Positions 3,734 to 63,266 are shown, counted from the stretch's first letter. The stretch: 64,000 nucleotides of DNA from Deltaproteobacteria bacterium GWC2_42_11 (GCA_001797495.1 MGPS01000070.1:15879-79878), one strand, 5' to 3'. Notes: a model not told the origin generated them from the letters alone. A program made the numbers and translations.

Positions 3734-3760
3734 GACCGTTATACGTGAACGTTATGCGTT

Positions 3761-3812
3761 AGATGCCTGTCCCACCGAAACATCACGCACACGTATCACG
3801 GCATTCAAGGAG
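3761..3812 (+). promoter_or_regulatory. Conserved ~50-nt leader motif, copy 1 (upstream of hdrB-like)
   Basis: agatgcctgtcccaccgaaacatcacgcacacgtatcacggcattcaaggag. It is nearly identical to 8035-8087 and ends in the RBS. Confidence 0.5.
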
Positions 3813-3822
3813 TATTTTTACA

Positions 3823-4776
3823 ATGAAAGATTTTGCAATATTCTGGGGCTGTACAATTCAATCCCGTTTCCCATTTCTTGAAAAATCAACAAGGATGGTT
3901 TTGGATGGGTTTAACCTGCCATACAGGGATGTTGACGGTTTCACATGTTGTCCTGAGAAATCACTTGTTAATAACATTGACCGCGGCTTATGGGTTTTAA
4001 CTGCTGCAAGGAATATTGCACTCCTTGATAAAGCAGGGCTTGACCTTGTAAGTCCATGTACAGGATGTGTATCAAATCTTGCAACCGTTAACTCCGAACT
4101 CCATTTAAGTTATAAAGAAAAGGAGAAGGTAAACTCTGTACTGCATGAGGTCGGGCTTGAATTTAAAGGAAAGAATAAACTCAGTCACCTTGTCCCGTTC
4201 TTCCATGACGAGGTCGGCATCCATGCTGTAAAGAATAAGGTTGTAAAGCCTTTCAACGGGATGAGGATAGCAATACATTATGGCTGTCACATGATAAGGC
4301 CGAGCCATACACTGAAGAATGATGACCCGCTTGAACCTAAGAAGTTTGATAACCTTATAAAGGCACTCGGTGCTGAGAGCGTGCAGCATATGACAAAACT
4401 TATGTGCTGCGGACAGGGGCTTGACAGGGTTGACCAGCATGAAAATTCGCTCCATTTTGCAAGAATTAAACTTAAAGAATTGAAGGCACTGGGAATTGAT
4501 GCAATGACACTGTGCTGTCCGTCATGCTATCTGCAGTTTGACAATAACCAATTCCTCATGGAAAAGGAAGGTGAGAAGTTAGGCATACCGATACTTTATT
4601 TTACAGAACTCCTCGGACTTGCAATGGGTTATAAACAAGAAGACCTTGGTCTTGAGTCTCACAGGATTGATGTTACACCATTTCTTGAAAAATGGAACAG
4701 GTTAAACGGAGAGTTGTCCCATGTCAGCGACTTAAACAGAGAACTGGAGGAAGGTTTTGGAATCGCTCAACCTTAA
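3823..4776 (+). CDS. Heterodisulfide reductase subunit B-like protein (two CCG domains)
   Basis: Cys-rich CCG signatures are FTCCPEK...CTGC and LMCCGQG...LCCPSCY. The start is taken at MKDFAIFWGC behind a GGAG RBS; the track ORF extends further 5' through a repeated leader motif. Confidence 0.7.
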   Translation: MKDFAIFWGCTIQSRFPFLEKSTRMVLDGFNLPYRDVDGFTCCPEKSLVNNIDRGLWVLTAARNIALLDKAGLDLVSPCTGCVSNLATVNSELHLSYKEKEKVNSVLHEVGLEFKGKNKLSHLVPFFHDEVGIHAVKNKVVKPFNGMRIAIHYGCHMIRPSHTLKNDDPLEPKKFDNLIKALGAESVQHMTKLMCCGQGLDRVDQHENSLHFARIKLKELKALGIDAMTLCCPSCYLQFDNNQFLMEKEGEKLGIPILYFTELLGLAMGYKQEDLGLESHRIDVTPFLEKWNRLNGELSHVSDLNRELEEGFGIAQP

Positions 4777-5316: not shown

Positions 5317-6402
5317 GTGAGTCATAACTTTCAAAAAGACATTTCAGGCTGCGGTCTGATTGGTATTATAAATAAAGACCGTACGAGGATAAGCGGGAGT
5401 TTCGTAACTAAATCACTCTGCCTTATGAGGGACAGGGGGAATGGACTTGGCGCTGGTTATGCAGCATACGGCGTGTATCCCAAATATAAAGACCTGTATG
5501 CATTCCATATAATGTATGACGAACCGTCTGCGCAGAGGGATACAGAAGAATATTTAAAGAAAAATTATTATATAGAGAAAAAGGAACCGATGCCGACAGC
5601 GCCTGTGGAGGGTATTAAAATCCACCCCATCCTGTACAGGTATTTTGTAAAGCCTCTGTCAGAAAAGGCTGAAAGGGAATCTGCTGAACTGGAGGACGAC
5701 GACTTCGTTGTAAAGACTGTCATGAAAATAAACTCCGAGATAGATGGCGCATATGTGTTTTCCAGCGGCAAGGATATGGCAGTGTTCAAGGGTGTTGGTA
5801 TGCCAGGTGAGATTGCAAGGTTTTTCAGGATTGACGAATATGAAGGTTATATATGGACAGGACATACGAGGTTTCCGACAAATACTCCCGGCTGGTGGGG
5901 CGGGGCGCACCCGTTTACACTCCTTGACTGGTCGATTGTCCATAACGGGGAGATTTCTTCATACGGTATAAACAAGAGATACCTCGAGATGTATGGTTAT
6001 AAACTCACACTCCTGACAGATACAGAGGTTGTTGCGTATCTTTTTGACCTGCTTGTCAGAAGGCATGGTCTGGATGTGCTAACTGCATGCACAGCACTTG
6101 CAGCACCCTTCTGGAAAAATGTTGATACCATGCATGATGAAGAAAAAGAAGCGATGACCGCTTTAAGGGTGATATACGGGAGTGCATTGCTGAACGGTCC
6201 TTTCTCAATACTCTTCGGGCATAAGAATGGTCTTGTCGGTTTTAATGACAGGATTAAACTGAGGCCCCTTGTCGCTGCGACAAAAGGGAAAACCGTCTAT
6301 ATGGCTAGCGAGGAATCTGCCATAAGGGAGATATGTCCTAGCCCTGAAAAGATATGGTCGCCTAGGGCAGGCGAGCCTGTGATTGTTGAGTTGGAGAGTT
6401 AA
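5317..6402 (+). CDS. Class II glutamine amidotransferase domain protein (archaeal-type glutamate synthase large-subunit domain 1)
   Basis: The GCGLIGI Ntn-hydrolase nucleophile region and a GATase-2 fold pattern are present. A GTG start follows a GGAGG RBS. Confidence 0.7.
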   Translation: MSHNFQKDISGCGLIGIINKDRTRISGSFVTKSLCLMRDRGNGLGAGYAAYGVYPKYKDLYAFHIMYDEPSAQRDTEEYLKKNYYIEKKEPMPTAPVEGIKIHPILYRYFVKPLSEKAERESAELEDDDFVVKTVMKINSEIDGAYVFSSGKDMAVFKGVGMPGEIARFFRIDEYEGYIWTGHTRFPTNTPGWWGGAHPFTLLDWSIVHNGEISSYGINKRYLEMYGYKLTLLTDTEVVAYLFDLLVRRHGLDVLTACTALAAPFWKNVDTMHDEEKEAMTALRVIYGSALLNGPFSILFGHKNGLVGFNDRIKLRPLVAATKGKTVYMASEESAIREICPSPEKIWSPRAGEPVIVELES

Positions 6403-6478
6403 TGAGTTTAGGAGTTAGAGAGTAAAAACTCCTTAACCCCAGAACTCCTCAACTCCTTAACTAATTTTGGAGGTTTAA

Positions 6479-8034: not shown

Positions 8035-8087
8035 AGATGCCTGTCCCACCGAAGCATCAACGCACACGCATCACGGTTTTTAAGGAG
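8035..8087 (+). promoter_or_regulatory. Conserved ~50-nt leader motif, copy 2 (upstream of GOGAT domain-3 gene)
   Basis: agatgcctgtcccaccgaagcatcaacgcacacgcatcacggtttttaaggag. Confidence 0.5.
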
Positions 8088-8091
8088 AAAC

Positions 8092-8829
8092 ATGCTTACA
8101 ATAGACGCAAAAGGGGTTTACTACAGGGAATTAAATCAGAAGGTGCGGGAGGTTGTTTCCAAAGGCGAGAAGGAGATACTCCTCAAAAATGTCAACGGGC
8201 AGTATTATATCGGAGACGGCCTGCAGGGCGATGTAAAAATCACTATTGAGGGTGTGCCGGGCAATGACCTTGCCGCATTTATGGACGGCCCTACAATTAT
8301 TATAAAGGCCAATGCACAGGATAATATCGGCAATACAATGAACAGCGGTAAGGTTGTTGTGCACGGTAATGCAGGGGATGTGCTTGGTTATGGCATGCGC
8401 GGCGGCAAACTGCATATAAGGGGTGATGTTGGTTACAGGGTGGGGATACATATGAAGGGATATAAGAAGCAGATACCTGTAATTATTGCCGGGGGGAAAG
8501 CAGGGGACTTTTTTGGGGAATACATGGCAGGCGGTGTGCTTATACTGCTGAATCTGGATAACCGTGATGACAGGCATATAACAGGCGACTATCTTGGGAC
8601 AGGTATGCACGGTGGGACGATATTTATAAGGGGTAATGTTGATAAAGGACTATGCGGTGCAGAGGTCAGCATACATGAGCCAATAAAGGATGATATTGCT
8701 GTCCTTAAAGGGTATCTTGCAGAATACTGTGCGGATTTCAATTTAAATCTTTCTGATGTAATGAGCGGCTGTTTTAAGAAGATTATACCGACATCGCTTC
8801 GGCCTTATGGTAATTTATACGCATATTGA
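8092..8829 (+). CDS. Glutamate synthase domain 3 protein (GXGXG repeats)
   Basis: Repeated G-x-G-x-G beta-helix motifs are present (VHGNAGDVLGYGMRGGKLHIRGDVGYRVG). Confidence 0.7.
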   Translation: MLTIDAKGVYYRELNQKVREVVSKGEKEILLKNVNGQYYIGDGLQGDVKITIEGVPGNDLAAFMDGPTIIIKANAQDNIGNTMNSGKVVVHGNAGDVLGYGMRGGKLHIRGDVGYRVGIHMKGYKKQIPVIIAGGKAGDFFGEYMAGGVLILLNLDNRDDRHITGDYLGTGMHGGTIFIRGNVDKGLCGAEVSIHEPIKDDIAVLKGYLAEYCADFNLNLSDVMSGCFKKIIPTSLRPYGNLYAY

Positions 8830-9435: not shown

Positions 9436-9616
9436 TTTCCCCTGCTATGTTCGTGATTAGCAGAATATTCAGAACCAACACCATCAAATAGGGAGCCTTC
9501 CCTGACTGACAGCCGACAATCCTGCTGGACGGGAAGTCGAAAGCAGTTAATTAAGGCACCCACCTATTTTATAGGTTCGAATAGACTGCTGACACGGCAT
9601 TACAGCGGGGGAGATA
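9436..9616 (+). ncRNA. ssrS: 6S RNA (ssrS)
   Basis: It lies between zapA and 5-formyl-THF cyclo-ligase, as in many bacteria. The 5' end UUUCCCCUGCUAUGUUCGUG pairs with the 3' end CACGGCAUUACAGCGGGGGAGA to form a closing stem. An internal ACCUAUUUUAUAGGUUCGAAUAGACUGCUGAC region resembles the E. coli 6S central-bubble flank. Length is ~180 nt. Confidence 0.75.
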
Positions 9617-9977: not shown

Positions 9978-10583
9978 GTGGACACTGCTGCAAATGATAA
10001 GAGTGCCTTGCGAAATGTCATCCTTCTAAAGCGTATAAAAATGTCTTTTGAAGATGTGTTCAGGATAAGCAGCATAATTCAGAAAAGATTTTTGCGATTA
10101 AACTCATACAAGACTTTTAAAAAACTGGCGCTTTATGCAAGTTTTAAAAATGAGGTGCTTACAGATAGTATAATGAACCATGCGATTGCTAATGGTAAGA
10201 ATGTGTATTTCCCAAAGGTTGTCAATGAATATAAAGGGCATAGAGGACTCAAGTTTGTAGAAGTTAAGGGAAAGAATGATTTTGAGCCGGGCTCATACGA
10301 TATCCATGAACCAGTTGGTAAATGCGATATGCCAGATATCAAAAAATTTGATACTGTTGTTGTGCCGGGCATAGCATTTGATATTTCTGGCAGCAGGCTG
10401 GGTTATGGCAAGGGCTATTATGATAAGGTTCTGTTTGGTCTAAAGGGATATGCAATACTAATCGGTCTTGCATTTGATTTTCAGGTTGTAAAAACACTAT
10501 CTACTGAAAGTCACGATGTTAGTATGGATATGATAATAACAGAAAGACGGATAATCAGAACAGGTAATAATTTTAGGTTATAA
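9978..10583 (+). CDS. ygfA: 5-formyltetrahydrofolate cyclo-ligase
   Basis: The GYGKGYYDK motif is present, with the ...VVVPGIAFD pattern. Position after ssrS matches E. coli synteny. The true start may be the internal Met (MSFEDVF). Confidence 0.75.
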   Translation: MDTAANDKSALRNVILLKRIKMSFEDVFRISSIIQKRFLRLNSYKTFKKLALYASFKNEVLTDSIMNHAIANGKNVYFPKVVNEYKGHRGLKFVEVKGKNDFEPGSYDIHEPVGKCDMPDIKKFDTVVVPGIAFDISGSRLGYGKGYYDKVLFGLKGYAILIGLAFDFQVVKTLSTESHDVSMDMIITERRIIRTGNNFRL

Positions 10584-14174: not shown

Positions 14175-14372
14175 TAGTTTTTCTGGTGCGATTTTATATA
14201 GAGCGTCATAAATAATTACGCATCATAATCAATAAAACACAAGTATTTAATGCGTTTTATTTAAGCCATCAAATAGGTGATGGAGTTCACCTTTAACCGC
14301 TTTAATGGCTGATGACTCCTACAAATTATTGGGAACAGATTTAAAATCTGTCCCCAAAAGGAGGAGGCTGAC

Positions 14373-22861: not shown

Positions 22862-22996
22862 TTATAAATAATTCCTAAATCCTAATATCTAATTTCTAAT
22901 AAAATATCCAATGACTAAATTTCCAATGCCTTTATCTTTGACATTTGACATTTTATTAGGAATTAGGATTTAGAAATTAGACATTTTATTAGAGGC
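22862..22996. repeat. Large imperfect palindrome between nadE and ftsE
   Basis: ctaaatcctaat pairs with attaggatttag, and tctaatttctaataaaat pairs with attttattagaaattag. The arms flank a ~45-nt centre. Confidence 0.5.
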
Positions 22997-22997
22997 A

Positions 22998-24785
22998 TTA
23001 ATAACTTCTATACCTGTTTGTTATCGGCATCCTCCTGTCTTTGCCCAGTGCACGCGGTGTTATTTTTATTCCGGGAGGCGATTGTCTCCGTTTGTATTCA
23101 GAGGCATCAACCATCCTTATAACCTTTTTCACAATACCTTTATTAAAACCCATTGCCGCTATATCTTCAAATGATTTATCTTCTTCCACATAAGTCCTTA
23201 ATATGGAGTCAAGGATTTCGTATGGCGGCAGTGTATCCTGGTCAGTCTGGTTCGGGCGGAGTTCTGCAGTAGGTGCCTTTCTTAAAACCCTTTCAGGGAT
23301 TAACACATTAATTTTGAGTTTTGACCCCTGCTTGAAACCTGCAAGGGCAAGGTTTTGAGTTTTGAGTTTATTTCTGTATTCAGCAAGTTTATAAACAAGT
23401 GTCTTGGGCACATCCTTTATGACAGCAAAGCCGCCTGCCATATCGCCGTAGAGTGTGGCATAACCTACACTCATCTCGCTCTTATTGCCTGTTGTAAGCA
23501 CAAGCCATCCAAATTTGTTAGAAAGAGCCATCAGGATATTCCCTCTTATTCTTGCCTGTATATTTTCTTCTGTGACATCAGGTTTAATTTTTTTAAATGT
23601 TTTGGAGAGCGTGGTTAGATATTTTTCAAATGTTTCCTGAATGGGGATGGTAAGGAACTCAATCTCCATATTCTTTGCAAGGTTTTCTGCGTCCTCTGAA
23701 CTTGCCCCTGACGAGTACATGGAAGGCATAAATACACCTGTAACATTACTCTTACCGAGCGCATCAACTGCTATTGCAGCGACAAGGGATGAATCTATGC
23801 CGCCGCTTAAACCAACAACAGTATGACTAAAACCATTTTTCCTGACATAGTCCTTAGTGCCCAGGGTAAGTGCCTTATATACCTCTTCAATCTGTTCAGG
23901 TGGATTTATAGGTACTTGAGCCAGCCTTTTTAATTTTTTTCTCTTTCCTGGTTTTGTGTGGAGGACTATCTCTTTCACCTTTTTTATTTCTACTTCAAGG
24001 ACAATCTTTTCCTTTCGTTTCCTCGGGTCGTGCAAACTGGCATTGAATATCCCTTCAACATCCAGTTCAGCGGTTATGAAGTCTTCCTCAAATGCCTTAC
24101 CCCTTGCAATGATATTACCTTTTTCATCCGCTATCATTCCCTGTCCATCAAATACGAGTTCGTCCTGCCCACCCACCATATTATTATAGACAACTATCAC
24201 ACCGTTGTCAGCAGCCCTGGCAGCAATCATCTCCTCCCGGAACCGTGCCTTACCCATATGATACGGAGAGGCGTTTATATTTACAATAACCTCTGCCCCT
24301 GCAAGAGATTGAACCCTTGCAGGTCCTTCAGGGTGCCAGATGTCTTCACATATACCTATCCCTATTGTGATACCATTGAGGACAATGTTCAGTGGTGTCT
24401 TGCCTGCATGGAAGTACCTCTCCTCATCAAATACACCGTAATTAGGGAGAAACATCTTGTGATATACCCCTGCTATCTCACCGTTGTGTATAACAGCAGC
24501 AGCATTGTAGATATCTCCCATACTGTCAACAAAACCTACAATTGCGGTGATACCCTTTGTTTTTCGTGCTATTTTCTTTATAAATGTTATGTTTCCTTTT
24601 ACAAACTGCGGCTTTAAGAGGAGGTCTTCAGGTGGATAGCCAGTGATGGCAAGTTCAGGGAATACAATAAGGTCTATGTCAAGCCCGATTGCCCTGTCAA
24701 GAAATCCTGATATCTTCTCTGCATTACCCCTTAGGTCGCCAACAGTAGGGTTTATCTGTGCCATTGCAATGCGGAGTGCACCCAT
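22998..24785 (-). CDS. nadE: Glutamine-dependent NAD+ synthetase (CN-hydrolase + NAD synthase domains)
   Basis: An N-terminal nitrilase-like domain and a C-terminal SGGIDSS P-loop are present. Start is taken at MGALRIAMAQ; the track ORF begins 16 codons earlier. Confidence 0.85.
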   Translation of the reverse strand: MGALRIAMAQINPTVGDLRGNAEKISGFLDRAIGLDIDLIVFPELAITGYPPEDLLLKPQFVKGNITFIKKIARKTKGITAIVGFVDSMGDIYNAAAVIHNGEIAGVYHKMFLPNYGVFDEERYFHAGKTPLNIVLNGITIGIGICEDIWHPEGPARVQSLAGAEVIVNINASPYHMGKARFREEMIAARAADNGVIVVYNNMVGGQDELVFDGQGMIADEKGNIIARGKAFEEDFITAELDVEGIFNASLHDPRKRKEKIVLEVEIKKVKEIVLHTKPGKRKKLKRLAQVPINPPEQIEEVYKALTLGTKDYVRKNGFSHTVVGLSGGIDSSLVAAIAVDALGKSNVTGVFMPSMYSSGASSEDAENLAKNMEIEFLTIPIQETFEKYLTTLSKTFKKIKPDVTEENIQARIRGNILMALSNKFGWLVLTTGNKSEMSVGYATLYGDMAGGFAVIKDVPKTLVYKLAEYRNKLKTQNLALAGFKQGSKLKINVLIPERVLRKAPTAELRPNQTDQDTLPPYEILDSILRTYVEEDKSFEDIAAMGFNKGIVKKVIRMVDASEYKRRQSPPGIKITPRALGKDRRMPITNRYRSY

Positions 24786-24834: not shown

Positions 24835-25018
24835 CCGTAAAATAGCGATTAAAAACCTCGCTATTTTACAAACCTGCGATTTGCCTGCCATACTTCGTTA
24901 TCGGACAATTTTTACTCCTCACCGTATCGGTGAACATACGGCTCGTCGTAAAAATTGTCCGCTGCCTCGTCTGGCAGGCAACTTGCAAGTTTCCCCAAAA
25001 ATCAAAGTCTATTTTTGG
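24835..25018. repeat. 184-nt structured dispersed element (family R1), copy 1
   Basis: More than 90% identical to 53828-54011. It contains several perfect hairpins (aaaatagcga/tcgctatttt; ggacaatttttac/gtaaaaattgtcc; gcctgcca/tggcaggc; cccaaaaat/atttttggg). Confidence 0.75.
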
Positions 25019-25142
25019 GCAATGGATAATGGTCTACGCTTGCAATAAATTTATCCTGTAATAAATCCTGTAATAAATTTATCCTTGACAACTTGAGTAG
25101 AATTGTATTATGAATTAACACACAATTTAATATAGATATATG

Positions 25143-25259
25143 CTTATTCAGAGTGGTGGAGGGACTGGCCCTGTGAAACCACAGCAACCGGCCTGTTGCA
25201 AACGGGCGGCAGGTGCTAACTCCAGCAAGGTTTGTGATTAAAAAGCCTTGAAAGATAAG
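25143..25259 (+). promoter_or_regulatory. SAM-I (S-box) riboswitch
   Basis: P1 pairs CUUAUUCAGAG with CUUGAAAGAUAAG. Conserved cores GGUGGAGGGACUGGCCC, GUGAAACC, CAGCAACC and GGUGCUAACUCCAGCA are present. Confidence 0.85.
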
Positions 25260-25274
25260 ATTAGGTAATAAAAG

Positions 25275-27880: not shown

Positions 27881-27967
27881 TTAAAGACTGAAGACCCGAG
27901 ACTTCAGACACAAGACTCAAGACCACAGATTTAAGACTCAAAACTTTAGTCTATAGTCTTAAGTCTG
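27881..27967. repeat. TAGACT palindromic repeat element (family R3), copy B
   Basis: agactgaagac...aaactttagtctatagtcttaagtctg. Shares agtctatagtct and agac(t/c)-type units with 5187-5300 and 40112-40187. Confidence 0.6.
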
Positions 27968-29562: not shown

Positions 29563-29587
29563 GACAACATTCTGCGAATGTTGAATT

Positions 29588-29687
29588 GTAAATTGAAGAT
29601 TGGAAGTTGGAAATTTTAAAATGGAATAAAAAGACAATTTGCAATTTAAATTTTACAATTTTCATTTTACAATTAGAGCGAAGCGAC
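29588..29687 (+). repeat. 105-bp duplicated leader element, copy 1 (upstream of mec)
   Basis: Near-identical to 30083-30197. It contains tandem gaagattg/gaaaattg octamers, then ttgcaatttaaattttacaattttcattttacaattagagcgaagcgac ending at the start codon. Confidence 0.7.
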
Positions 29688-29688
29688 C

Positions 29689-30099
29689 ATGCTTTATCTA
29701 TCTAAAGACATATATAACGAGATTATCAGCCATGCTGAGAAATCATACCCTTATGAAGGATGCGGTGTTCTTGTAGGCAGGGATAAGAGGGTTGTGAAGA
29801 TTTGTCCTGTTGAGAACATAAACAAAGACAGGGCAAATGACAGGTATGAGATAGACCCAAAGGATTTGCTCAGGGTTGAGAAAGGGGTGTCCGAAAAAGG
29901 GCTGAATGTCCTTGGGTTTTTTCATTCACATCCTGACCATCCTGATATGCCGTCTGAGTTTGACAGACAAAGGGCATGGCAATTTTATTCGTATATGATT
30001 GTATCTGTGCATAATGGAAAATCTGTTTCAGTAAAATCATGGACATTTGAAGATGAAAATGAACCATTCAGAGAGGAGGAGGTAAAGATTGAAGATTGA
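29689..30099 (+). CDS. mec: JAMM/MPN+ metalloprotease (Mec-like sulfur-carrier peptidase)
   Basis: EGCG...HSHPDHPDMPSEFD JAMM motif. Confidence 0.8.
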   Translation: MLYLSKDIYNEIISHAEKSYPYEGCGVLVGRDKRVVKICPVENINKDRANDRYEIDPKDLLRVEKGVSEKGLNVLGFFHSHPDHPDMPSEFDRQRAWQFYSYMIVSVHNGKSVSVKSWTFEDENEPFREEEVKIED

Positions 30100-30197
30100 A
30101 AATTGAAAATTGGAAATTGGAAATTTTAAAATGGAATAAAAAGACAATTTGCAATTTAAATTTTGCAATTTTCATTTTACAATTAGAGCGAAGCGAC
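30083..30197 (+). repeat. 105-bp duplicated leader element, copy 2 (upstream of E1-like gene)
   Basis: See copy 1. The 5' part overlaps the last codons of mec. Confidence 0.7.
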
Positions 30198-39174: not shown

Positions 39175-40131
39175 ATGTCTTCTTATCCTTTAAGTGTAAT
39201 GCACAACTTCGGCGGTCTGGATGAGAAGGCATCCTCATTCAAAAAGGCAAAGTTTGTTGTCCTGCCTGTTCCGTATGATATGACAGCATCTTATCAGAGC
39301 GGGACAAGAAAAGGTCCGTATGCAATCATTGATGCGTCAACCCATATGGAATTATATAATGAGGAACTGGACATAGAGGCATATAAGGTCGGGATACACA
39401 CAATGCCTTATCTGGAGCCAACCTCAAAAGGTCCTAAGGAGATGGTGGATATTGTTTATGAGGCATCCAGCTATATAGTGAACTTAGATAAAATTCCGGT
39501 TATGCTCGGCGGTGAGCACAGTATAACCCTGGGGCTTGTCAGAGCGCTTAAAAAAAAATATCCGAATATGTCTGTTCTTCAACTGGATGCACATGCAGAC
39601 ATGAGGGATAAATATCAGGAAAGCCCGTATAACCATGCGTGTATTGCAAGGAGAATATCAGAGATGTGTCCGATTGTTCAGGTTGGCATAAGGAGTTTAA
39701 GTGTTGAAGAGGCAGAGTTCTTAAAAAAGGGGTTGGAACACAGAACACAGAAGTCAGAAAAAACGCATCACGCATCACACATCACGCATCACAGTATCCA
39801 TACCTATTTTGCAAAGGATATTATAAGAGGCATCCCTGTAGAGGATATATGCAGTAATCTGACGAATGAAGTTTTTATTACCATTGACCTTGATGTGTTT
39901 GACCCTTCAATTATGCCTGCAACAGGAACCCCTGAACCAGGAGGGTTGATGTGGTATGAAGTGACGGGATTATTGAGGAACATTGCTGCTAAAAAAGAGA
40001 TAATCGGTTTTGATGTGGTTGAGTTGTGCCCGCTGGCAGGTAATTTATCTCCGGATTTCCTTGCTGCAAAACTTGTTTATAAGATGATGGGATATATAGT
40101 AAAAGACAAAAAAGCAGACTATAGACTTTAA
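39175..40131 (+). CDS. speB: Agmatinase / arginase-family ureohydrolase
   Basis: Arginase-fold Mn-ligand motifs are present (GGEHSIT, DAHADM, DLDVFDPS). It carries a His-rich insertion encoded by a nucleotide repeat. Confidence 0.8.
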   Translation: MSSYPLSVMHNFGGLDEKASSFKKAKFVVLPVPYDMTASYQSGTRKGPYAIIDASTHMELYNEELDIEAYKVGIHTMPYLEPTSKGPKEMVDIVYEASSYIVNLDKIPVMLGGEHSITLGLVRALKKKYPNMSVLQLDAHADMRDKYQESPYNHACIARRISEMCPIVQVGIRSLSVEEAEFLKKGLEHRTQKSEKTHHASHITHHSIHTYFAKDIIRGIPVEDICSNLTNEVFITIDLDVFDPSIMPATGTPEPGGLMWYEVTGLLRNIAAKKEIIGFDVVELCPLAGNLSPDFLAAKLVYKMMGYIVKDKKADYRL

Positions 40132-40187
40132 AGTAGACCATAGACTAAAGACTAAAAAGTCTAAAGTCTATAGTCTAAAGTCTAAAC
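40112..40187. repeat. TAGACT palindromic repeat element (family R3), copy C
   Basis: gcagactatagactttaaagtagaccatagactaaagactaaaaagtctaaagtctatagtctaaagtctaaac. It supplies the last codons and stop of speB. Confidence 0.65.
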
Positions 40188-41698: not shown

Positions 41699-42721
41699 AT
41701 GAATGTTGCCATAACATACAACATAAAAAAGAAAGAGACTTTAACAGAGAATCTCCCCCCTGATTTTTATGCTGAATGGGATGATGATGAGACAATAGAC
41801 GCAATAAGGGATGCTGTCTCAAAAAGGCATGAGGTGGTTTTAATAGAGGCAGATAAAGAGGGGTATCAGAAACTTGTAAAAGAAAAACCTGATATGGTTT
41901 TTAATATTGCAGAGGGCATTAACGGCAGAAACAGGGAATCCCATATCCCTGCCATGCTGGAGATGCTCGGGATACCATATACAGGTTCAGGTCCTCTGAC
42001 ACTTGGCATCTGCCTTGATAAGGCAAGGGCAAAAGAGATACTCTCTTATTACAATATTCCAACTGCCAGATTTTTTGTATCACACTCAGCGCTCAGCGCT
42101 CAACACTCGGCGCTCTCCTTCCCCCTCATTGTCAAACCCCTTTATGAGGGTTCAAGTAAGGGCATAAGGAATGACTCTATAGTCTATAATATTGACGACC
42201 TCAATAAAAAGACTGAATGGGTCATTAACGAATACAGGCAGCCTGCCCTTGTCGAGGAATTCCTTGATGGGAGGGAGTTTACAGTCGCCGTGATGGGCAA
42301 TGGTGATGAAGTAAATTGCCTTCCTATTGTTGAAATAAATTATTCAACACTCCCTGAAGGGGTAAACCCGATTTATTCCTATGAAGCAAAGTGGCTATGG
42401 GATACACCTGATAACCCGCTGGAGATATTCACCTGTCCGGCACAGATAGAAGCCGAATTAACCCAGAGGATAGAAGAGATATGCAAAAGGGCGTTTCAGG
42501 TTCTGGACATCAAAGACTGGTGCAGGATAGATATAAGACTGGATGGTAAAGGTACTCCGCACATCCTGGAACTTAATCCGCTGCCGGGGATACTGCCTGA
42601 CCCTAAAAGTAATTCATGTTTTCCAAAGGCAGCAAGGGCTGCTGGCATGGATTACAATAGACTTATAAATACAGTACTTGATATTGCGTGTAAGAGATAT
42701 GGTATTTATGGCAACCGCTGA
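41699..42721 (+). CDS. D-alanine--D-alanine ligase family ATP-grasp protein, paralog 1
   Basis: Ddl-family motifs (GIPYTGSGPLTLGICLDK, LIVKPLYEGSSKGI, the ELNPLPG region) are present. The family tolerates an in-frame SALSAQHSALS repeat insertion. Confidence 0.65.
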   Translation: MNVAITYNIKKKETLTENLPPDFYAEWDDDETIDAIRDAVSKRHEVVLIEADKEGYQKLVKEKPDMVFNIAEGINGRNRESHIPAMLEMLGIPYTGSGPLTLGICLDKARAKEILSYYNIPTARFFVSHSALSAQHSALSFPLIVKPLYEGSSKGIRNDSIVYNIDDLNKKTEWVINEYRQPALVEEFLDGREFTVAVMGNGDEVNCLPIVEINYSTLPEGVNPIYSYEAKWLWDTPDNPLEIFTCPAQIEAELTQRIEEICKRAFQVLDIKDWCRIDIRLDGKGTPHILELNPLPGILPDPKSNSCFPKAARAAGMDYNRLINTVLDIACKRYGIYGNR

Positions 42722-53697: not shown

Positions 53698-53774
53698 TGG
53701 GGTGAGCGAGGGGATTTGAACCCCCAGCCCTCGGAGCCACAGTCCGATGCTCTAACCATTGAGCTACGCCCACC
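53698..53774 (-). tRNA. tRNA-His (GUG) with encoded G-1 and CCA
   Basis: The reverse complement folds as a cloverleaf: acceptor GGUGGGCG..CGCUCACC, anticodon loop CUGUGGC, T-arm GGGGGUUCAAAUCCCC, 3' CCA. Confidence 0.9.
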
Positions 53775-53827: not shown

Positions 53828-54011
53828 CCGTAAAATAGCGATTAAAAACCTCGCTATTTTACAAACCTGCGATTTGGCTGCCATACTTCGTTATCGGCCA
53901 ATTTTTGTTCCTCACCGTATCGGTGAACATACGGCTCGTCTCAAAGATTGTCCGCTGCCTCGTCTGGCAGCCAACTTGCAGGTTTCCCCAAAAATCAATG
54001 TCTATTTTTGG
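53828..54011. repeat. 184-nt structured dispersed element (family R1), copy 2
   Basis: See copy 1 at 24835-25018. Confidence 0.75.
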
Positions 54012-54077
54012 GAGTTCGGTAAACAATTTAAGAAATTTCATTGACTGCCGATTTAAAAGGTGTAAGAATATATATGT

Positions 54078-55865: not shown

Positions 55866-56789
55866 ATGAAACTCAATAGAAAGGACATACTCAGCATAGA
55901 AGATTTAACAAAGGAAGAGATAGAACTCGTCCTGAAGACTGCCGAATCATTTAAAGAGGTGTCTGAAAGGGATATCAAGAAGGTCCCTACGTTGCGCGGC
56001 AAAACTATTATTAACCTATTTTACGAGCCATCCACAAGGACAAGGACATCTTTTGAGATTGCTGCCAAGAGAATGAGTGCGGATGCTATAAATATATCTG
56101 CTTCATCCAGCAGTGTTGTGAAGGGCGAGACATTGAAAGATACTGCAAAAAACCTTGAGGCAATGAATCCTGACTGCATTGTCCTGAGGCATTCCTTCAG
56201 CGGCGCGCCACATATTCTGGCAGGTCTGGTAAAGTGTTCTGTTATAAATGCAGGGGATGGGTGCCATGAGCATCCAAGTCAGGCGCTGCTTGATATGCTG
56301 ACGGTTAAGGAAAAACTCGGAAGGATAGAAGGATTAAAGATTGCAATAATAGGCGACATCCTGCACTCAAGGGTTGCAAGAAGCAATATCTACGGCTTTA
56401 CAAAACTCGGTGCAGAGGTAAGGGCTGCCGGGCTTCCGACAATGATGCCGTGCAGGATTGAGCAGATGGGCTGCAGGGTATTTTACAATATGGAAGATGC
56501 TATTAAAGATTCAGATGTAATAATGATGTTAAGAATACAACTGGAGAGGCAGAATGCCGCACTATTTCCCACAGTCAGGGAATACTCAAAACTCTTTGGT
56601 CTGGATTCAAAAAAACTTGAGATGGCAAAGAAGGATGTAATTATCCTTCATCCAGGACCAATAAACAGGGGTGTTGAAATTTCATCGGATGTTGCAGATG
56701 GAAGGTCATCACTTATACTTGATCAGGTTACAAACGGTGTGGCTGTGAGGATGGCTTTGTTTTATCTCCTGCTTGGGAGGGAGTTATGA
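55866..56789 (+). CDS. pyrB: Aspartate carbamoyltransferase catalytic subunit
   Basis: STRTR carbamoyl-phosphate motif and HPxQ are present. Confidence 0.9.
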
Positions 56790-58072
56790 GTAAACTTCTA
56801 ATAAAAGGCGGGCATGTTGTTGACCCTGCAAATGGGATTGACGGGATATTTGATGTTTATTGTGTTGACGGCAAAATCGTTGAAATCACGCATCACGCAT
56901 CCCGCATCACGCACAACGATTGCACTGTCATAGATGCAACGGGTCTTCATGTTTTCCCGGGTTTTATTGACATGCACACGCATTTAAGAGAGCCGGGCTA
57001 TGAATATAAAGAGGACATAAGAACAGGCACAATGGCAGCAGCAGCAGGAGGTTTTACATCTGTTGCATGTATGGCAAATACTGACCCTGTTAATGACAAT
57101 TCATCTGTTACAAGATATATCCTGAAAAAGGCACAGGAAGAGGGTATTGTAAATGTCTTTCCTGTTGGTGCAGTAAGTAAAGGTTTAAAAGGTGAGATAC
57201 TTGCAGAGATTAGCGATTTGAAAGATGCGGGATGTGTTGCGATTTCAGATGACGGCAAGCCTGTTTCTGACAGCAGGTTGATGAGGCTGGCACTGGAATA
57301 TTCAAAACCTTTTAATCTGCCTGTTATATCCCACTGCGAGGATTTAACCCTTGCAGGGGATGGTGTTATGAACGAAGGTTTTATTTCTACAAAACTGGGT
57401 TTAAAGGGCATCCCGAATGCAGCAGAGGATATTATGGTTGCAAGGGATATTGCCCTTGCAGAACTTACACACGGGAAACTGCACATTGCCCATGTATCTG
57501 CATCTGGGAGTGTTGAACTTATAAGAAATGCCAAGTCAAGAGGTGTAAATGTTACAGCAGAGGTTACGCCGCACCACTTTACACTAACAGATGAATGTGT
57601 AACCGGCTACAACACCAATGCAAAGATGAACCCTCCGCTTCGCAGTATTAGTGATATAGAGGCATTGAAACAGGGGCTTAAACACGGAACAATAGATGTC
57701 ATTGCAACAGACCATGCACCACAGAATGCTGATGAAAAGGATGTGGAATTTGATAAGGCAGCAAACGGTGTTGTTGGACTTGAGACTGCATTCTCACTTT
57801 CTTTAAAACTCGTTTCAGACGGGCTTATTTCATTATCTGTCCTGATTGAAAAAATCTCTCTAAACCCTTCAAGGATTTTAGGGCTTGATAAAAAAGGCTC
57901 TCTAAAAGTCGGCAATGATGCTGATATAACGATTGTGGATTTAAATAAGGAATGGTTTGTTGATGTAAATAAATTAAAATCAAAGAGCAAAAATACTCCG
58001 TTTGAAAACTGGAAGATGAAAGGTAAAGTTGTGAAGACAATAGTTGGAGGGAAGGTGGTGTATGAGGGATAG
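56786..58072 (+). CDS. pyrC: Dihydroorotase (multifunctional-complex type)
   Basis: [10 protein letters not shown] metal-binding motif. It contains an in-frame CATCACGCATCACGCATC repeat coding [10 protein letters not shown]. Confidence 0.85.
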
Positions 58073-59240
58073 GAATAAGGCAGTCCTTGCACTTGCAGAC
58101 GGCACTGTATTTGAAGGTTATTCATTCGGCGCTGAAGGTGAGTCAATAGGTGAGGTAGTTTTCAATACCTCAATGACAGGGTATCAGGAAATTTTAACTG
58201 ACCCGTCTTATAAAGGACAGATTGTTACAATGACCTATACCCAGATTGGAAATTACGGGATAAATAGTGAGGATATTGAATCAGCAAGACCATGGATTGA
58301 AGGATTTATTGTAAAGGAATTTTGCCAATATCCAAGCAACTGGCGTTCAAAAGAGACTCTGGATAGTTATCTAAAAAGGCACAATATTGTTGGGATACAC
58401 GGAATAGATACAAGGGCTTTGACAAAGCATTTAAGGGATAATGGCGCTATGAATGGGGTTATATCAACTGTTGATTTGGACCCAGAAAGACTTGTTAAAA
58501 AGGCAAAGGGATTTCCATCCATGGCAGGGCTTGACCTTGCAAAAGAGGTAACATGCAAAGAGCCATATAAATTGAAGCAGGGTTTGTGGAATATAGAAAG
58601 AGGTTACTCATCACTCAGCACTCATCACTCGCCACTCTATAAGGTGGTTGCATATGACTTTGGCATAAAATACAACATCCTCCGAAACCTTGTTAATGTC
58701 GGGTGTGATGTTACAGTTGTGCCTGCATGGACATCTGCTGATGATGTTTTGAAGATGAACCCGGACGGCGTATTCCTTTCAAATGGCCCCGGCGACCCTG
58801 ATGCAGTTAAATACGCAATTGAGAATGTGAGAAAACTCATTGGCAAAAAACCAATATTTGGAATCTGTCTCGGACATCAGATACTTGGGCTTGCTCTTGG
58901 CGGAAAGACATATAAACTAAAATTCGGTCATCGCGGGGGCAATCAGCCTGTTATGGATTTAACAACAAGAAAGGTTGAGATTACATCCCAGAATCACGGC
59001 TTTGCAGTTGATGTTAATTCTTTAAAAGGCATTGCTGAACTTACACATATAAACCTAAATGACAAAACAGTTGAAGGGCTTGCACACAAAAAACTACCGC
59101 TATTTTCTGTCCAGTATCATCCAGAGGCATCGCCAGGTCCGCATGATGCAAGTTATCTTTTCAAAAGGTTTGTGGATTTGATGGAGGGTAAATGGTCATT
59201 GAATTTAAGCCTTTCAATGCAGGCTTTGAAGAATGCTTAA
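58062..59240 (+). CDS. carA: Carbamoyl-phosphate synthase small subunit
   Basis: Class I GATase triad region (GICLGHQ). It contains an in-frame CTCATCACTCAGCACTCATCAC repeat. Confidence 0.85.
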
Positions 59241-59845
59241 AAGAGTTTAAAGACTATTTTATAAATGAGACATTTGCCGAAGAGATAAAACTTGCAAAAG
59301 AAGAATTTACAAATTCTGGCATAGATTTAAATGAGGGTGAGAATTATGAGGAAAGGCTTAGTATATTTTTTGACTGGTATCTGTTTGACAGACCATTGTC
59401 AGATACAAATCTAACCCCTGTCAGATATTTTGTTGAAACCCTTTCAAACAAAGGAGATATATACGATGGATTTTCAAAAACCATACAAAGCATATTTGTT
59501 ATAAAGCGGAGGGGTATTGGATATGTAAAGGTAAAGGATATGTTTACAAGAAAAAAATATATAGTGAATGGCGATAATCTTATAGGTTTTGAAAAGAGGG
59601 ATATAATGGAGGCAAGGCTTATCCCGTTTGAGAGGTCTTACAGATTTTCAGAGACATTCTGTTTTTATCCTGATGATATAAAGACTATGCTGAAAAAAGA
59701 GATAAAAGAGGCAAAAAAACAGGAAGAGGCAGACTTTTATCCTGTTTTATTAAAGTTTAGAAGATTAAAAACCATGTCAGAGAGATTTACAAGGATGGAT
59801 ATAAAAAAGGTTTATACCTTAATGGAGGAAGGATTGCTTGCCTAA
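59192..59845 (+). CDS. Hypothetical protein encoded between carA and carB
   Basis: A 217-aa ORF with no recognisable domain. It overlaps the carA 3' end by ~49 nt and its stop overlaps the carB start. Confidence 0.35.
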
Positions 59846-62800
59846 ACGAACTGACATAAAAAAAATACTCATCATCGGCGCGGGACCTATTGTCATAGGC
59901 CAGGCATGCGAGTTTGACTATTCAGGCACGCAGGCGTGCAAGGCTCTAAAAGAAGAGGGTTATAAGGTCATCCTCATCAACTCAAACCCTGCGACCATTA
60001 TGACTGACCCGGAGATTGCTGACAGGACATATATTGAGCCGATTACGCCTGAAATAGTTGAAAAAATCATTGAGAAGGAAAGACCTGATGCAATCCTTCC
60101 GACTATGGGCGGACAGACCGCGCTCAATACAGCGGTGGCTCTGGCGGAATCCGGCGTTTTGGAAAAATATCATGTTGAGCTCATCGGCGCTAAACTCCAT
60201 GCAATAAAAAAGGCAGAAGACAGGGAACTCTTTAAAGAGGCAATGGAAAGGATTGGTCTTGAGGTGCCAAGAAGCGGTTATGCAAAGACCCTGACAGATG
60301 CAATGAGTATAATGGAGACCATGGATTATCCTGCAATCATAAGGCCATCTTTTACACTCGGCGGCACAGGCGGCGGTATCGCATATAACAGCGAGGAATT
60401 TAAGGACATGGTTCAGTATGGACTGGATGCAAGCCCGTATAGCGAAATCCTCATTGAAGAATCTGTAATAGGCTGGAAGGAATATGAACTGGAGGTTATG
60501 AGGGATGGTAAGGACAATGTTGTTATTATCTGTTCAATAGAGAATTTTGACCCTATGGGAGTCCATACAGGGGATTCCATAACTGTTGCGCCTGCCCAGA
60601 CATTAACAGATAAGGAATATCAGATAATGAGGGATGCGGCACTCAAGATTATAAGGGAAATCGGTGTTGATACAGGAGGCTCAAACATCCAATTTTCTGT
60701 TAATCCTCAAAATGGGAAGATGCATGTGATTGAGATGAACCCCAGGGTTTCCCGCTCATCTGCACTTGCAAGCAAGGCAACCGGTTTTCCTATTGCAAAG
60801 ATTGCCGCAAAACTTGCGGTAGGATATACGCTTGATGAGATTCCCAATGACATAACAAAAAAGACACCTGCCTCATTTGAGCCGACAATTGACTATGTGG
60901 TCACAAAGGTTCCGAGGTTTACATTTGAAAAATTTCCTGAGGCGGATGCTATACTCACAACACAGATGAAGTCTGTGGGAGAGGTAATGGCAATAGGAAG
61001 GACATTTAAAGAGTCTTTACAGAAGGCACTCAGGTCGCTTGAGATAGGGAGTTATGGGTTTGAAGAAAGGGTTCAAGGGGTCGGGGGTTCAAGGGTTAAG
61101 GAAGAGATTACTGAAAAACTCAGGACACCTAATTGGGAGAGGCTTTGGTATATTGCAGATGCCTTCAGAGCAGGCATGACTGTTGATGAGATATTTGATT
61201 TATCAAAGGTTGACAGGTGGTTTCTGAATAATATAAGGGAGATTGTGGAGTTTGAGAGTGAGTTAGAGAGTTTAGGAGTAAAAGAAAAGACAGTTAAGGA
61301 GTCAACTCCTCAACTCCTCAACTCATTACGGCAGGCAAAAGAACTTGGATTTTCTGACAAACGGATAGCACAGTTATCAGGTAAAACCGAAGCAGAAATA
61401 AGAGAGGCGAGAAAACAGGCAGGGGTTGAGCCTGTATATAAGACAGTTGATACATGCGGCGCAGAGTTTGAGGCATATACACCGTATCTGTATTCTGCAT
61501 ATGAAAAACCATTTTATAGCATAGAGCATGGAGCAGAGAGCAAAGAGCAAAAGAAATATCCCTATGCCCTATGCCCTATGCCCTATGCGCTTACTGTTGC
61601 TTGTGAATCCAACCCCACCACCCGCAAAAAAGTCATAATCCTCGGCAGTGGTCCCAATAGAATCGGTCAGGGCATTGAGTTTGATTACTGCTGTGTCCAT
61701 GCAGCATTTGCATTAAAGGAAGATGGCATCGAGACCATAATGGTAAACTGCAATCCTGAGACAGTATCAACTGATTATGACACTTCTGACAGGCTCTATT
61801 TCGAACCCCTCACATTTGAAGATGTTATGAACATAATTGAAAAGGAGAAACCTTTTGGCGTTATTGTCCAGTTCGGCGGGCAGACGCCTTTAAAACTTGC
61901 AGTGTCTCTGGAAAAGGCTGGAGTAAAAATCCTCGGCACATCGCCTGATTCCATTGATATCGCAGAAGACAGGGAAAGGTTTGACAAACTCCTCACAAAA
62001 CTAAATCTAAAAAGACCTGAAAGCGGCATTGCCCGTTCAATTGATGAGGCAATAAAGGTTGCAAATAAAATTGGGTATCCTGTTATGGTAAGACCTTCCT
62101 ATGTACTCGGCGGAAGGGCGATGGAGATAGTCTATACAGAGGAGAGTTTAAAGGACTACATGAAAAGGGCTGTTGAGGCATCCCCTGAACACCCTGTCCT
62201 GATTGATAAATTTTTAAACAATGCAACAGAGGTGGATGTTGACTGCGTTTCTGATGGTAAGGATATTGTTATTGGTGGTATTATGGAGCATATTGAAGAG
62301 GCAGGCATACATTCAGGTGATTCGGCATGCTCAATACCGCCGTATTCTCTTGATTTAAATATCATTGATGAGATAAGAAGGCAGACAATTTTGCTTGCAA
62401 AAGAATTAAATGTAATAGGACTAATGAATGTCCAGTTTGCAGTGAAAAAAAATCCCCCCATCCCCCCCTTTGAAAAAGGGGAGATTGAGGGGGGATTAAA
62501 CAAGGGGCAAGGGTCAGAAATATATGTTCTTGAGGTTAACCCAAGGGCATCAAGGACTGTTCCATTTGTAAGCAAGGCAATAGGAAAACCCCTTGCAAAG
62601 ATTGCTGCAAAGGTTATGGCAGGTAAGACCCTTAAGGAATTAGATTTCACAAAAGAGATTGTGCCAGGGCATATTTCTGTAAAGGAATCTGTCTTTCCAT
62701 TTATAAAATTTCCGGGTGTTGATACGATCCTTGGTCCTGAGATGAAGTCAACAGGAGAGGTAATGGGCATAGATAAAGATTTCGGCAGGGCATTTGCAAA

Positions 62801-63266
62801 GGCACAGATTGCAGCAGGGACAAAACTGCCACCCCCACCTTTATCCTCCCCCTTAAAGGGGGAGGGGAGGGGAGGGGGCAAGGTTTTTATAAGCGTAAAA
62901 GATGAGGATAAACAAGAGGCCATATCAGCGGCAAAACGGCTGAGGGAGATGGGCTTTGAGATAGTTGCTACAAGCGGTACAGGAAAATATTTAAAAGATA
63001 ATGGGGTTGATACAGAGTTTGTATATAAGGTTGGAGAGGGAAGGCCGCATATAGTGGATAAGATAAAAAGCGGCGATATTGCTATGGTTATAAATACTTC
63101 ATTTGGTGCAAAGGCAGTTAAGGATTCCTTTTCAATAAGAAGGTCAGCGCTTGTCTATGGTGTGCCTTATTTTACAACGATTTCAGGCGCAAAGGCAGCA
63201 AGCCTTGGTATAGAGGCACTCATAAAAGAGGGCATGGGAGTAAAGCCGCTGCAGGAATACAATTAA
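59838..63266 (+). CDS. carB: Carbamoyl-phosphate synthase large subunit (with several short in-frame insertions)
   Basis: Two ATP-grasp halves and an MGS-like domain are present. It is collinear with E. coli CarB except for insertions at 61559-61586, 62446-62515 and 62844-62865. Confidence 0.9.

Follow-up and report, generated by a model that had tools for sequence, protein, structure and literature searches.

Heptanucleotide tandem arrays in variable loops of agmatinase and dihydroorotase from a groundwater deltaproteobacterial genome, and their likely origin as simple-sequence repeats filtered by selection

The stretch of DNA analysed here (the window) comprises 64,000 nt of Deltaproteobacteria bacterium GWC2_42_11, a metagenome-assembled genome (MAG) from groundwater, and all coordinates are counted from the start of the window. 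Short tandem repeats with a 7-nt unit lie inside two of its enzyme genes, speB (agmatinase) and pyrC (dihydroorotase). The genes and their arrays, some of them called with Tandem Repeats Finder (TRF), are as follows.

39175-40131, + strand: speB, agmatinase of the Arginase family, 318 aa (Pfam E value 2.6e-64)
39736-39762, + strand: degenerate period-7 array GAACACA GAACACA GAAGTCA GAAAAA(A) in speB, abutting the ACGCATC array, encoding EHRTQKSEK and collinear with the related locus L003
39763-39792, + strand: tandem heptanucleotide array (ACGCATC)4.3 in speB (TRF, 91% matches), encoding THHASHITHH
56786-58072, + strand: pyrC, dihydroorotase, 428 aa (Amidohydro_1 and DHOase; 6.9e-122 to the Aquifex dihydroorotase 3d6n)
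56885-56913, + strand: array (ATCACGC)4.1 in pyrC (TRF, 90% matches), spanning the last part of strand 30-36 plus loop 37-46 (N-terminal beta domain)

The preliminary description of this DNA had placed the repeat aacgcatcacgcatcacacatcacgcatcacag at 39762-39794 in speB and atcacgcatcacgcatcccgcatcacgcacaacg at 56885-56918 in pyrC, and both sets of coordinates were exact. The units of the two arrays, ACGCATC and ATCACGC, are one heptamer in different rotations. TRF calls and translation of the open reading frames (ORFs) agreed that a repeat of the ACGCATC type lies in frame inside these two unrelated enzymes, each array being embedded in a long ORF (the speB translation is KTHHASHITHHSIH). Cyclic translation of the unit (ACG CAT CAC GCA TCA CGC ATC) gives T-H-H-A-S-R-I, and the peptides are of the form THHAS[HR]I; the speB and pyrC loops contain histidine because CAT and CAC codons sit in the unit. 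The repeat is far commoner than expected by chance: CATCACGCATCACG occurred eight times in the window at no more than two mismatches, compared with 0.17 expected, and none of 100 shuffles reached eight. Neither the speB nor the pyrC array showed RNA structure of its own (z +2.1 and -0.8, respectively).

Six independently assembled contigs (L169-L174, from NCBI, JGI, and ENA) were 99.66-100% identical to the window, with the arrays ungapped. CarA of the window is 100% identical to the protein P0331. The arrays were identical across the same-species assemblies that cover them, namely four for pyrC and, for the arrays in carB and carA that are described below, four and six, the speB array lying outside these contigs. 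The possibility that the arrays are an assembly artefact was therefore rejected.

TRF found about 25 tandem arrays of period 7 in the window, among them the speB and pyrC arrays. Some 15 distinct heptamer units build these arrays, including ACTCATC, GAACACA, AAAGTCT, AAGACTG, CTCAGCG, AAAACTC, ATTGAAA, ACAATTT, AGCATAG, and CCCTATG. This variety, together with the unrelated units found in the same loops of relatives (see below), argues against the idea of one special mini-element. Exact period-7 runs numbered 10 in the window versus 0.15 expected, and periods 4-6 and 8 were near expectation. In a mismatch-tolerant scan, the density of period-7 arrays per 10 kb was 2.19 in the window, 5.8 and 1.5 in two related MAG loci (L002 and L001, respectively), and 0.205 in 80 unrelated control loci (1.17 Mb), with periods 5, 6, and 8 at background. 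Arrays of at least 3.5 copies occurred at 1.39 per 10 kb, the value for the controls (1.72 Mb) being 0.163, and the mode of the copy number was 3.5-5.5. The speB and pyrC stretches belong to a genome-wide, lineage-enriched population of arrays. The controls likewise had period 7 far above periods 5, 6, and 9, a surplus that agrees with heptanucleotides being the commonest long-unit simple-sequence repeat (SSR) of prokaryotes, as far as the work of Mrazek et al. (2007) is reported in PMC4679880 and PMC4692102. No close relative of the window was found in a genome-contig scan (best 63% identity) or in a metagenome-contig scan (best 60%), and the loci from these two scans served as controls only.

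Non-coding sequence makes up about 9% of the window yet holds 13 of the 25 TRF period-7 arrays, which are about 11-fold denser there than in coding sequence. The intergenic arrays are mostly inverted pairs that give periodic hairpins (z -3.1 to -4.95), as listed here.

6388-6462, 22875-22985, 27913-27966, 29584-29674, 30088-30184, and 40140-40186, intergenic: periodic hairpins from inverted pairs of 7- or 8-nt tandem arrays
40140-40186, + strand: the (AGACTAA)/(AAAGTCT) periodic hairpin of this set, intergenic, directly 3' of the speB stop codon (z -3.8)

The hairpins at 29584-29674 and 30088-30184 are near-copies on either side of an ORF (29689-30099), and the intergenic periodic hairpins as a whole resemble elements of the repetitive extragenic palindromic (REP) type made of tandem units.

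About half of the arrays are intragenic, and these always occupy variable loops or linkers (in speB, pyrC, carA, carB, an ATP-grasp ligase, and NadE). Ten of the 12 coding arrays are free of stop codons on the sense strand in all three phases, and nine of these ten have an antisense stop; ACGCATC itself has TGA in its complement. Among the intergenic arrays, 5 of 13 are stop-free on the + strand (one-sided Fisher p ~0.03 for the contrast, by our own arithmetic). A stop-codon filter of this kind is expected because a 7-nt unit runs through all three frames every 21 nt.

The speB gene lies in a deoxyhypusine-synthase-like/agmatinase/pyruvoyl arginine decarboxylase cluster. Its GAACACA and ACGCATC arrays jointly form a lineage-specific insert at roughly residues 187-207. 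In an alignment of 36 agmatinases, the site between the helix ..EEAEFLKK and the strand ..TYFAKD was hypervariable in the close clade, and the insert was short or absent in distant homologues of 282 aa and in the Protein Data Bank structures 3pzl and 3lhl. In L003 (68% DNA identity), the insert is collinear and contains decayed copies of both arrays, the distance from EFL to TYFA being 99 nt as in the window. The L004 gene (81% amino acid identity) has only AAAACACATCACGCAATC, and this distance is 57 nt; the difference of -42 nt equals six units or 14 codons. A single ACGCATCACGG is present in L001, whose gene is here 21 nt shorter than that of the window by eye, the gaps in the MAFFT alignment being placed otherwise; the same gene also holds an unrelated palindromic insert (ACCCATC...GATGGGT). 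L002 carries (AAACTCA)4.9 where the window has its arrays, and the encoded peptide (TQNSKLKTQN) contains no histidine. The THH beside the strand is retained in four of six close relatives. The double array is therefore a lineage-specific insertion that arose before the window and L003 diverged and was lost or replaced in other members.

In the AlphaFold2 model of the agmatinase, array residues 197-206 lie in a coil (192-207) between helix 177-191 and strand 208-212, and the insert overlaps the C-terminal end of this helix and fills the loop up to the strand. The predicted local distance difference test score averaged 48 at residues 191-200 (below 50 at 195-198) and 67 at 201-210. The alpha/beta fold suggests that this helix-to-strand loop is on the side opposite the metal site.

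The pyrC gene stands in the order pyrR-pyrB-pyrC-carA-carB. The loop of its product from GKIxE to VIDAxG varied across all dihydroorotases compared. As the window loop is only three residues longer than that of Aquifex 3d6n and most close relatives have longer ones, 'insertion' is the wrong word for pyrC, and the view that both repeats are lineage-specific inserts holds for speB only, there being almost no net insertion in pyrC. In the AlphaFold2 model, the array maps to the N-terminal beta domain, where it occupies a hairpin loop outside the catalytic barrel. At the DNA level, other arrays occupied the same loop in relatives, namely (AGTCAGG)5.4 in L085, a degenerate (GTCAAAG)~5 in L086, and (TCTCACG)3.9 in L087, and a decayed period-7 pattern was seen in L088. 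The loops were wholly different among members of the same protein clusters (at least 90% identity), and those of close relatives included the His-free sequences SGVRSRESGVRS, GQRVKVSKGQRVK, and PPNPPLEKGG.

Arrays in other genes of the window are as follows.

58606-58637, + strand: (ACTCATC)~4.5 array in the carA interdomain linker, one base off ACGCATC; the peptide includes STHHSPL
2218-2234, + strand: (ACTCATC)2.4 array in the N-terminal signal/lipobox region of a TPR protein (lipoprotein), encoding NSSLIT
61518-61588, + strand: inverted heptamer-array pair (AGCATAG)n and (CCCTATG)4 in carB, a 31-aa insert at the boundary of the CarB halves; periodic hairpin (z -3.9)
42085-42115, + strand: (CTCAGCG)4.4 array in an ATP-grasp ligase, encoding HSALSAQHSAL
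23352-23369, - strand: (AAAACTC)2.6 on the coding strand of NadE, encoding KLKTQN

The carA array entails zero net length change relative to Escherichia coli CarA. In relatives, the same linker holds other 7-aa periodic peptides (LRTPNSELRT, IRNPQSAIRN, and STVHRPPSTI), and the linker of one of them (P0352) reads TTHHASRH. The L002 orthologue of the ATP-grasp ligase has (CACTCTC)5 at the site of the window array. Different units at the same site were therefore observed across relatives in four places: the speB loop, the pyrC loop, the ATP-grasp ligase, and the carA linker. The AAAACTC unit is shared by NadE of the window, speB of L002, and acetyltransferases of L001 and L002. CarB (59838-63266) has 1142 aa versus 1073 in E. 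coli because it contains several repeat-derived in-frame inserts.

In addition to the heptamer pair at 61518-61588, these repeat-derived inserts are a period-8 array (61060-61101), an inverted pair GAGTTAGA/TCAACTCC (61248-61324), a palindromic element (62452-62497), and a hairpin CCTCCCCC..GGGGGAGG with (GGGGA)3.8 (62849-62877). CarB has a 21-aa palindromic PPFEKGE insert (hairpin); peptides of the type PP[LF][ES]KGG also occur in pyrC and carA loops of relatives. Between carA and carB stands an ORF of 217 aa (59192-59845), assigned to Pfam DUF7986 by the precomputed gene calls. It shares about 49 nt with the end of carA, and such a break in the carAB pair is unusual. In L002 (GCA_016223005.1), pyrK contains adjoining in-frame (AAGGCAA)5 and (ACTCATC)~4 arrays at 10482-10553, which encode RQKAKSKRQKANNSSLITHHSPL and are followed by a conserved LYKMVCKDG. 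Over the 18 nt that follow the array, this gene agrees with carA of the window at about 17, and copying of the array with its flank from pyrK to carA was considered. The match was rejected as proof of copying because YK[VM]V is native in both protein families.

The repeat family also occurs outside coding sequence. Degenerate units of the ACGCATC family were present at 3781-3803 and 8057-8076, as the preliminary description had indicated, and these belong to two copies of a leader block.

3762-3812, + strand: leader block AGATGCCTGTCCCACCGAAACATCACGCACACGTATCACGG..AAGGAG, 5' of a CCG-domain gene starting at 3823
8036-8087, + strand: second copy of the leader block, 5' of a GXGXG (glutamate-synthase-like) gene starting at 8092

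The block is about 43 nt long and occurs in near-identical copies (AGATGCCTGTCCCACCGAArCATCA(A)CGCACACGyATCACGG..AAGGAG) directly 5' of the ribosome-binding sites. Its 3' part (3781-3803 in the first copy) is a decayed CGCAYCA-type array of the ACGCATC family, and in the first leader (region 3735-3825) this arm pairs with an upstream partial complement at 3740-3764. Both downstream genes belong to a glutamate-synthase-like cluster. The block could be a shared translational or regulatory leader. The sequence GCCTGTCCCACCGAA of the block had two copies in the window and none in 168 other loci searched (about 2 Mb), and (CATCACG)2 was likewise absent from these loci. A scan against Rfam returned no family for the arrays or the leaders.

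No inverted repeats were found around the speB array. A 17-nt pair with 76% complementarity around the pyrC array was rejected as an inverted repeat, this being at chance level and encoding two beta strands. Comparison by eye of the flanks of ACGCATC-family arrays revealed no shared ends beyond A-rich 5' sequence, direct target-site duplications not having been searched for, and copies of the family have only the repeat itself in common. These results give no support to the earlier proposal of a discrete mobile element.

Several other features of the window were recorded. At the gathering threshold, Rfam matches were a 6S RNA (9436-9615), a fluoride riboswitch (14267-14328), a SAM riboswitch (25141-25261), and a tRNA (53701-53773). 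A 185-nt repeat with 94.6% identity is present at 24835-25019, near the SAM-riboswitch gene region, and at 53828-54012, near the tRNA. Beside it, 97 nt (53850-53946) are absent from the UBA re-assembly GCA_003532155.1 (L169 5883-5886) and present in the window and the JGI contig, which reflects either a real indel or an assembly difference.

We consider it likely that the arrays are heptanucleotide SSRs, with slippage or template switching as their source, selection as the filter, and the histidines as a by-product. According to this model, short proto-repeats would give rise to arrays, and arrays would turn over, through replication slippage or template switching; the encoded peptides would be neutral. 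Selection would then filter the arrays, most of which would persist intergenically, often as inverted pairs that give periodic hairpins. Persistence inside a gene would depend on a unit that is stop-free in all three sense-strand phases, on a total length that keeps the frame (through 21-nt steps or compensating indels), and on a site in a loop or linker where any hydrophilic peptide is tolerated. The label 'slippage-prone' in the preliminary description is compatible with a tandem 7-nt array. The speB lengths fit steps of 7 x 3 nt (-42 nt in L004, and -21 nt in L001 by eye), and the differences in other relatives are not multiples of 7.

A number of observations weigh against this model. No copy-number polymorphism was seen in the six same-species assemblies, one of them at 99.66% identity, all being consensus assemblies. 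Stepwise growth from a seed of 1.3 units to four units is awkward because single-unit slippage shifts the coding frame, and the model leaves the preference for period 7 and for about four units unexplained. Between the window and L003, conservation of the speB insert is not below that of the remaining gene (73.5% vs. 68% DNA identity), and at third codon positions identity is 14 of 22 (64%) in the insert versus 45% elsewhere in speB. These numbers are small and only suggestive, and they would point to concerted evolution or some constraint. Sharing of units between non-homologous sites was above chance, with two identical and eight one-mismatch pairs among the 14 strongest arrays (P ~0.006); AC[GT]CATC is found in sense orientation at all four of its coding sites and also in two leaders. 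Finally, two genomes share a nearly identical array, that of carA in the window matching that of pyrK in L002 at about 39 of 44 nt by eye.

Several of these observations would follow if the arrays were a copy-paste mini-element, that is, if preformed blocks of a heptamer family, such as one arm of REP-like periodic hairpins, were copied to new sites by microhomology-mediated template switching or by an unknown trans-acting activity. The coding copies would then be half-elements, because only a stop-free arm can survive in genes, and the TGA in the complement of ACGCATC would leave just one orientation for coding. Such copying, which we judge rather unlikely, would accommodate the non-random sharing of AC[GT]CATC among coding sites and leaders and of AAAACTC among the window, L001, and L002, the similarity of the carA and pyrK arrays, and the TTHHASRH of P0352. 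It would also be in keeping with the pairing of a CGCAYCA-type arm with its complement in the leader at 3735-3825 and with palindromic inserts in other loops of the lineage (the PPFEKGE hairpin of carB and the ACCCATC..GATGGGT of L001 speB). However, neither terminal inverted repeats nor conserved flanks were found at the speB or pyrC arrays (with the limit on target-site duplications given above), (CATCACG)2 is absent from the other loci, and the common flank of carA and pyrK is the native YK[VM]V. The units differ between orthologous sites, and exactly where the window has its array, L004 and L001 contain a single-unit seed; both observations fit change in situ. Many separate elements would, moreover, be needed to account for the 15 or more unit families found in 64 kb. 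It is improbable, in our estimation, that an active process propagates these sequence families, with heptamer-built REP-like hairpins whose single arms are copied into loops of essential enzymes to give hypervariable cassettes that are wholly unlike even in strains at least 90% identical. If true, it would mean that intragenic repeats of a new type, selfish or templated, exist and that housekeeping proteins have a natural source of loop diversity.

The two remaining explanations assign the arrays a function. Agmatinase contains a binuclear Mn site and dihydroorotase a binuclear Zn site, both being binuclear metallohydrolases (of the Arginase and Amidohydrolase families, respectively), and the preliminary description had raised the possibility that His-rich metal-binding patches were selected, which might aid metal capture or delivery. 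The nature of the host enzymes, the THH kept in most close speB relatives, and the conservation of the speB insert between the window and L003 are in line with this. However, close relatives have His-free loops at both sites, the unit sequence trivially accounts for the His content, and the peptides encoded by the same DNA family contain His in CarA and lack it in a signal peptide. In addition, the speB loop precedes a beta strand on what the fold suggests is the face away from the active site, and the pyrC loop is in a non-catalytic beta domain. Selection for metal binding is accordingly very unlikely on our assessment. Adding or removing a single 7-nt unit changes the reading frame, and pathogens reportedly have phase-variable loci built of heptanucleotides, as in Haemophilus HMW1A, so that the arrays could be pictured as contingency loci, hypermutable frameshift switches for speB and pyrC. 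This is the least probable of the explanations and hardly credible: the arrays are harboured by housekeeping genes of biosynthesis, they occupy loops in the middle of the gene and not regions near the N-termini of surface proteins, and their roughly four units already contain mismatches, which implies lower slippage rates. Nor did the pyrC, carA, and carB arrays vary in length in the consensus assemblies that cover them (4, 6, and 4, respectively; speB not covered).

The window shows the outcome of a heptanucleotide-rich genome admitting repeats into coding sequence. For annotators, this means that low-complexity His-, Ser-, or Lys-rich inserts of this kind should not be taken as functional motifs. 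For work on repeat evolution, the lineage also provides natural replicates, in that the 7-nt unit of a given loop changes from relative to relative. With them one could investigate why bacteria favour a 7-nt unit and about four copies per array, which the literature cited here notes without giving an answer.

Heptanucleotide SSRs are the most abundant long-unit SSRs in many prokaryotes, and polymerase slippage has been proposed for them, according to the account of Mrazek (2007) given in PMC4679880. The arrays described here resemble the long-unit SSRs of prokaryotes (Mrazek, Guo and Shah 2007, to the extent that this work is relayed in PMC4679880 and PMC4692102) in their tandem, mostly intergenic 7-nt units, in the proposed slippage, and in an excess confined to period 7, with periods 5, 6, 8, and 9 at background, across many genomes. 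As measured against those accounts, they differ in that about half of the window arrays are in frame within conserved housekeeping enzymes, that the units are diverse and AT-rich or mixed, and that they come from an uncultured lineage in groundwater. Geobacter metallireducens has (GGACCGG)4 at 49 intergenic and intragenic sites as well as (MTYCTGA)5 palindromic sites, which its authors read as regulatory RNAs or binding sites (PMC2700814). These elements are likewise arrays of about four tandem heptamers within and between genes, some being strand-switching palindromes, and their host is also a 'deltaproteobacterium'; however, one or two GC-rich consensus units dominate there (PMC2700814), whereas many units are found here, and GGACCGG was not found in the window.

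The GGGNATC and GGGGA(T/C)T repeats of Xanthomonas and Nostoc, which favour four units, and the cyanobacterial STRR heptamers are similarly genome-wide with about four units, and lie mostly between co-directional ORFs (PMC4692102). Unlike the Xanthomonas and Nostoc repeats, ACGCATC cannot form G-quadruplexes and is unstructured. TAACTGA repeats of marine Beggiatoaceae, cyanobacteria, and Bacteroidetes form short arrays of 2-6 copies, have an ORF orientation limited by stops in the unit, and lie at peripheral or non-functional parts of proteins when within ORFs, all of which is shared with the present arrays; they differ in being a single specific unit located just 5' of start codons (PMC4679880). 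The window contains no TAACTGA arrays, its three weak matches being single degenerate copies. Rickettsia palindromic elements and MITE-like (miniature inverted-repeat transposable element) repeats are alike in that in-frame repeat DNA is tolerated at surface loops of conserved proteins (PMC2229807, PMC10969869); the Rickettsia elements, which are the classical example of selfish repeats inserted in frame, are defined palindromes of about 100-150 bp with many near-identical copies, whereas the speB and pyrC arrays are one-armed, 30 nt long, and without detected terminal inverted repeats. A paper on SSRs in coding regions (PMC3315296) deals with units of 1-3 nt only. The speB and pyrC arrays therefore belong with the known heptanucleotide repeats of prokaryotes, and what is mildly novel is that the same enzyme loops are repeatedly occupied by different 7-nt arrays.

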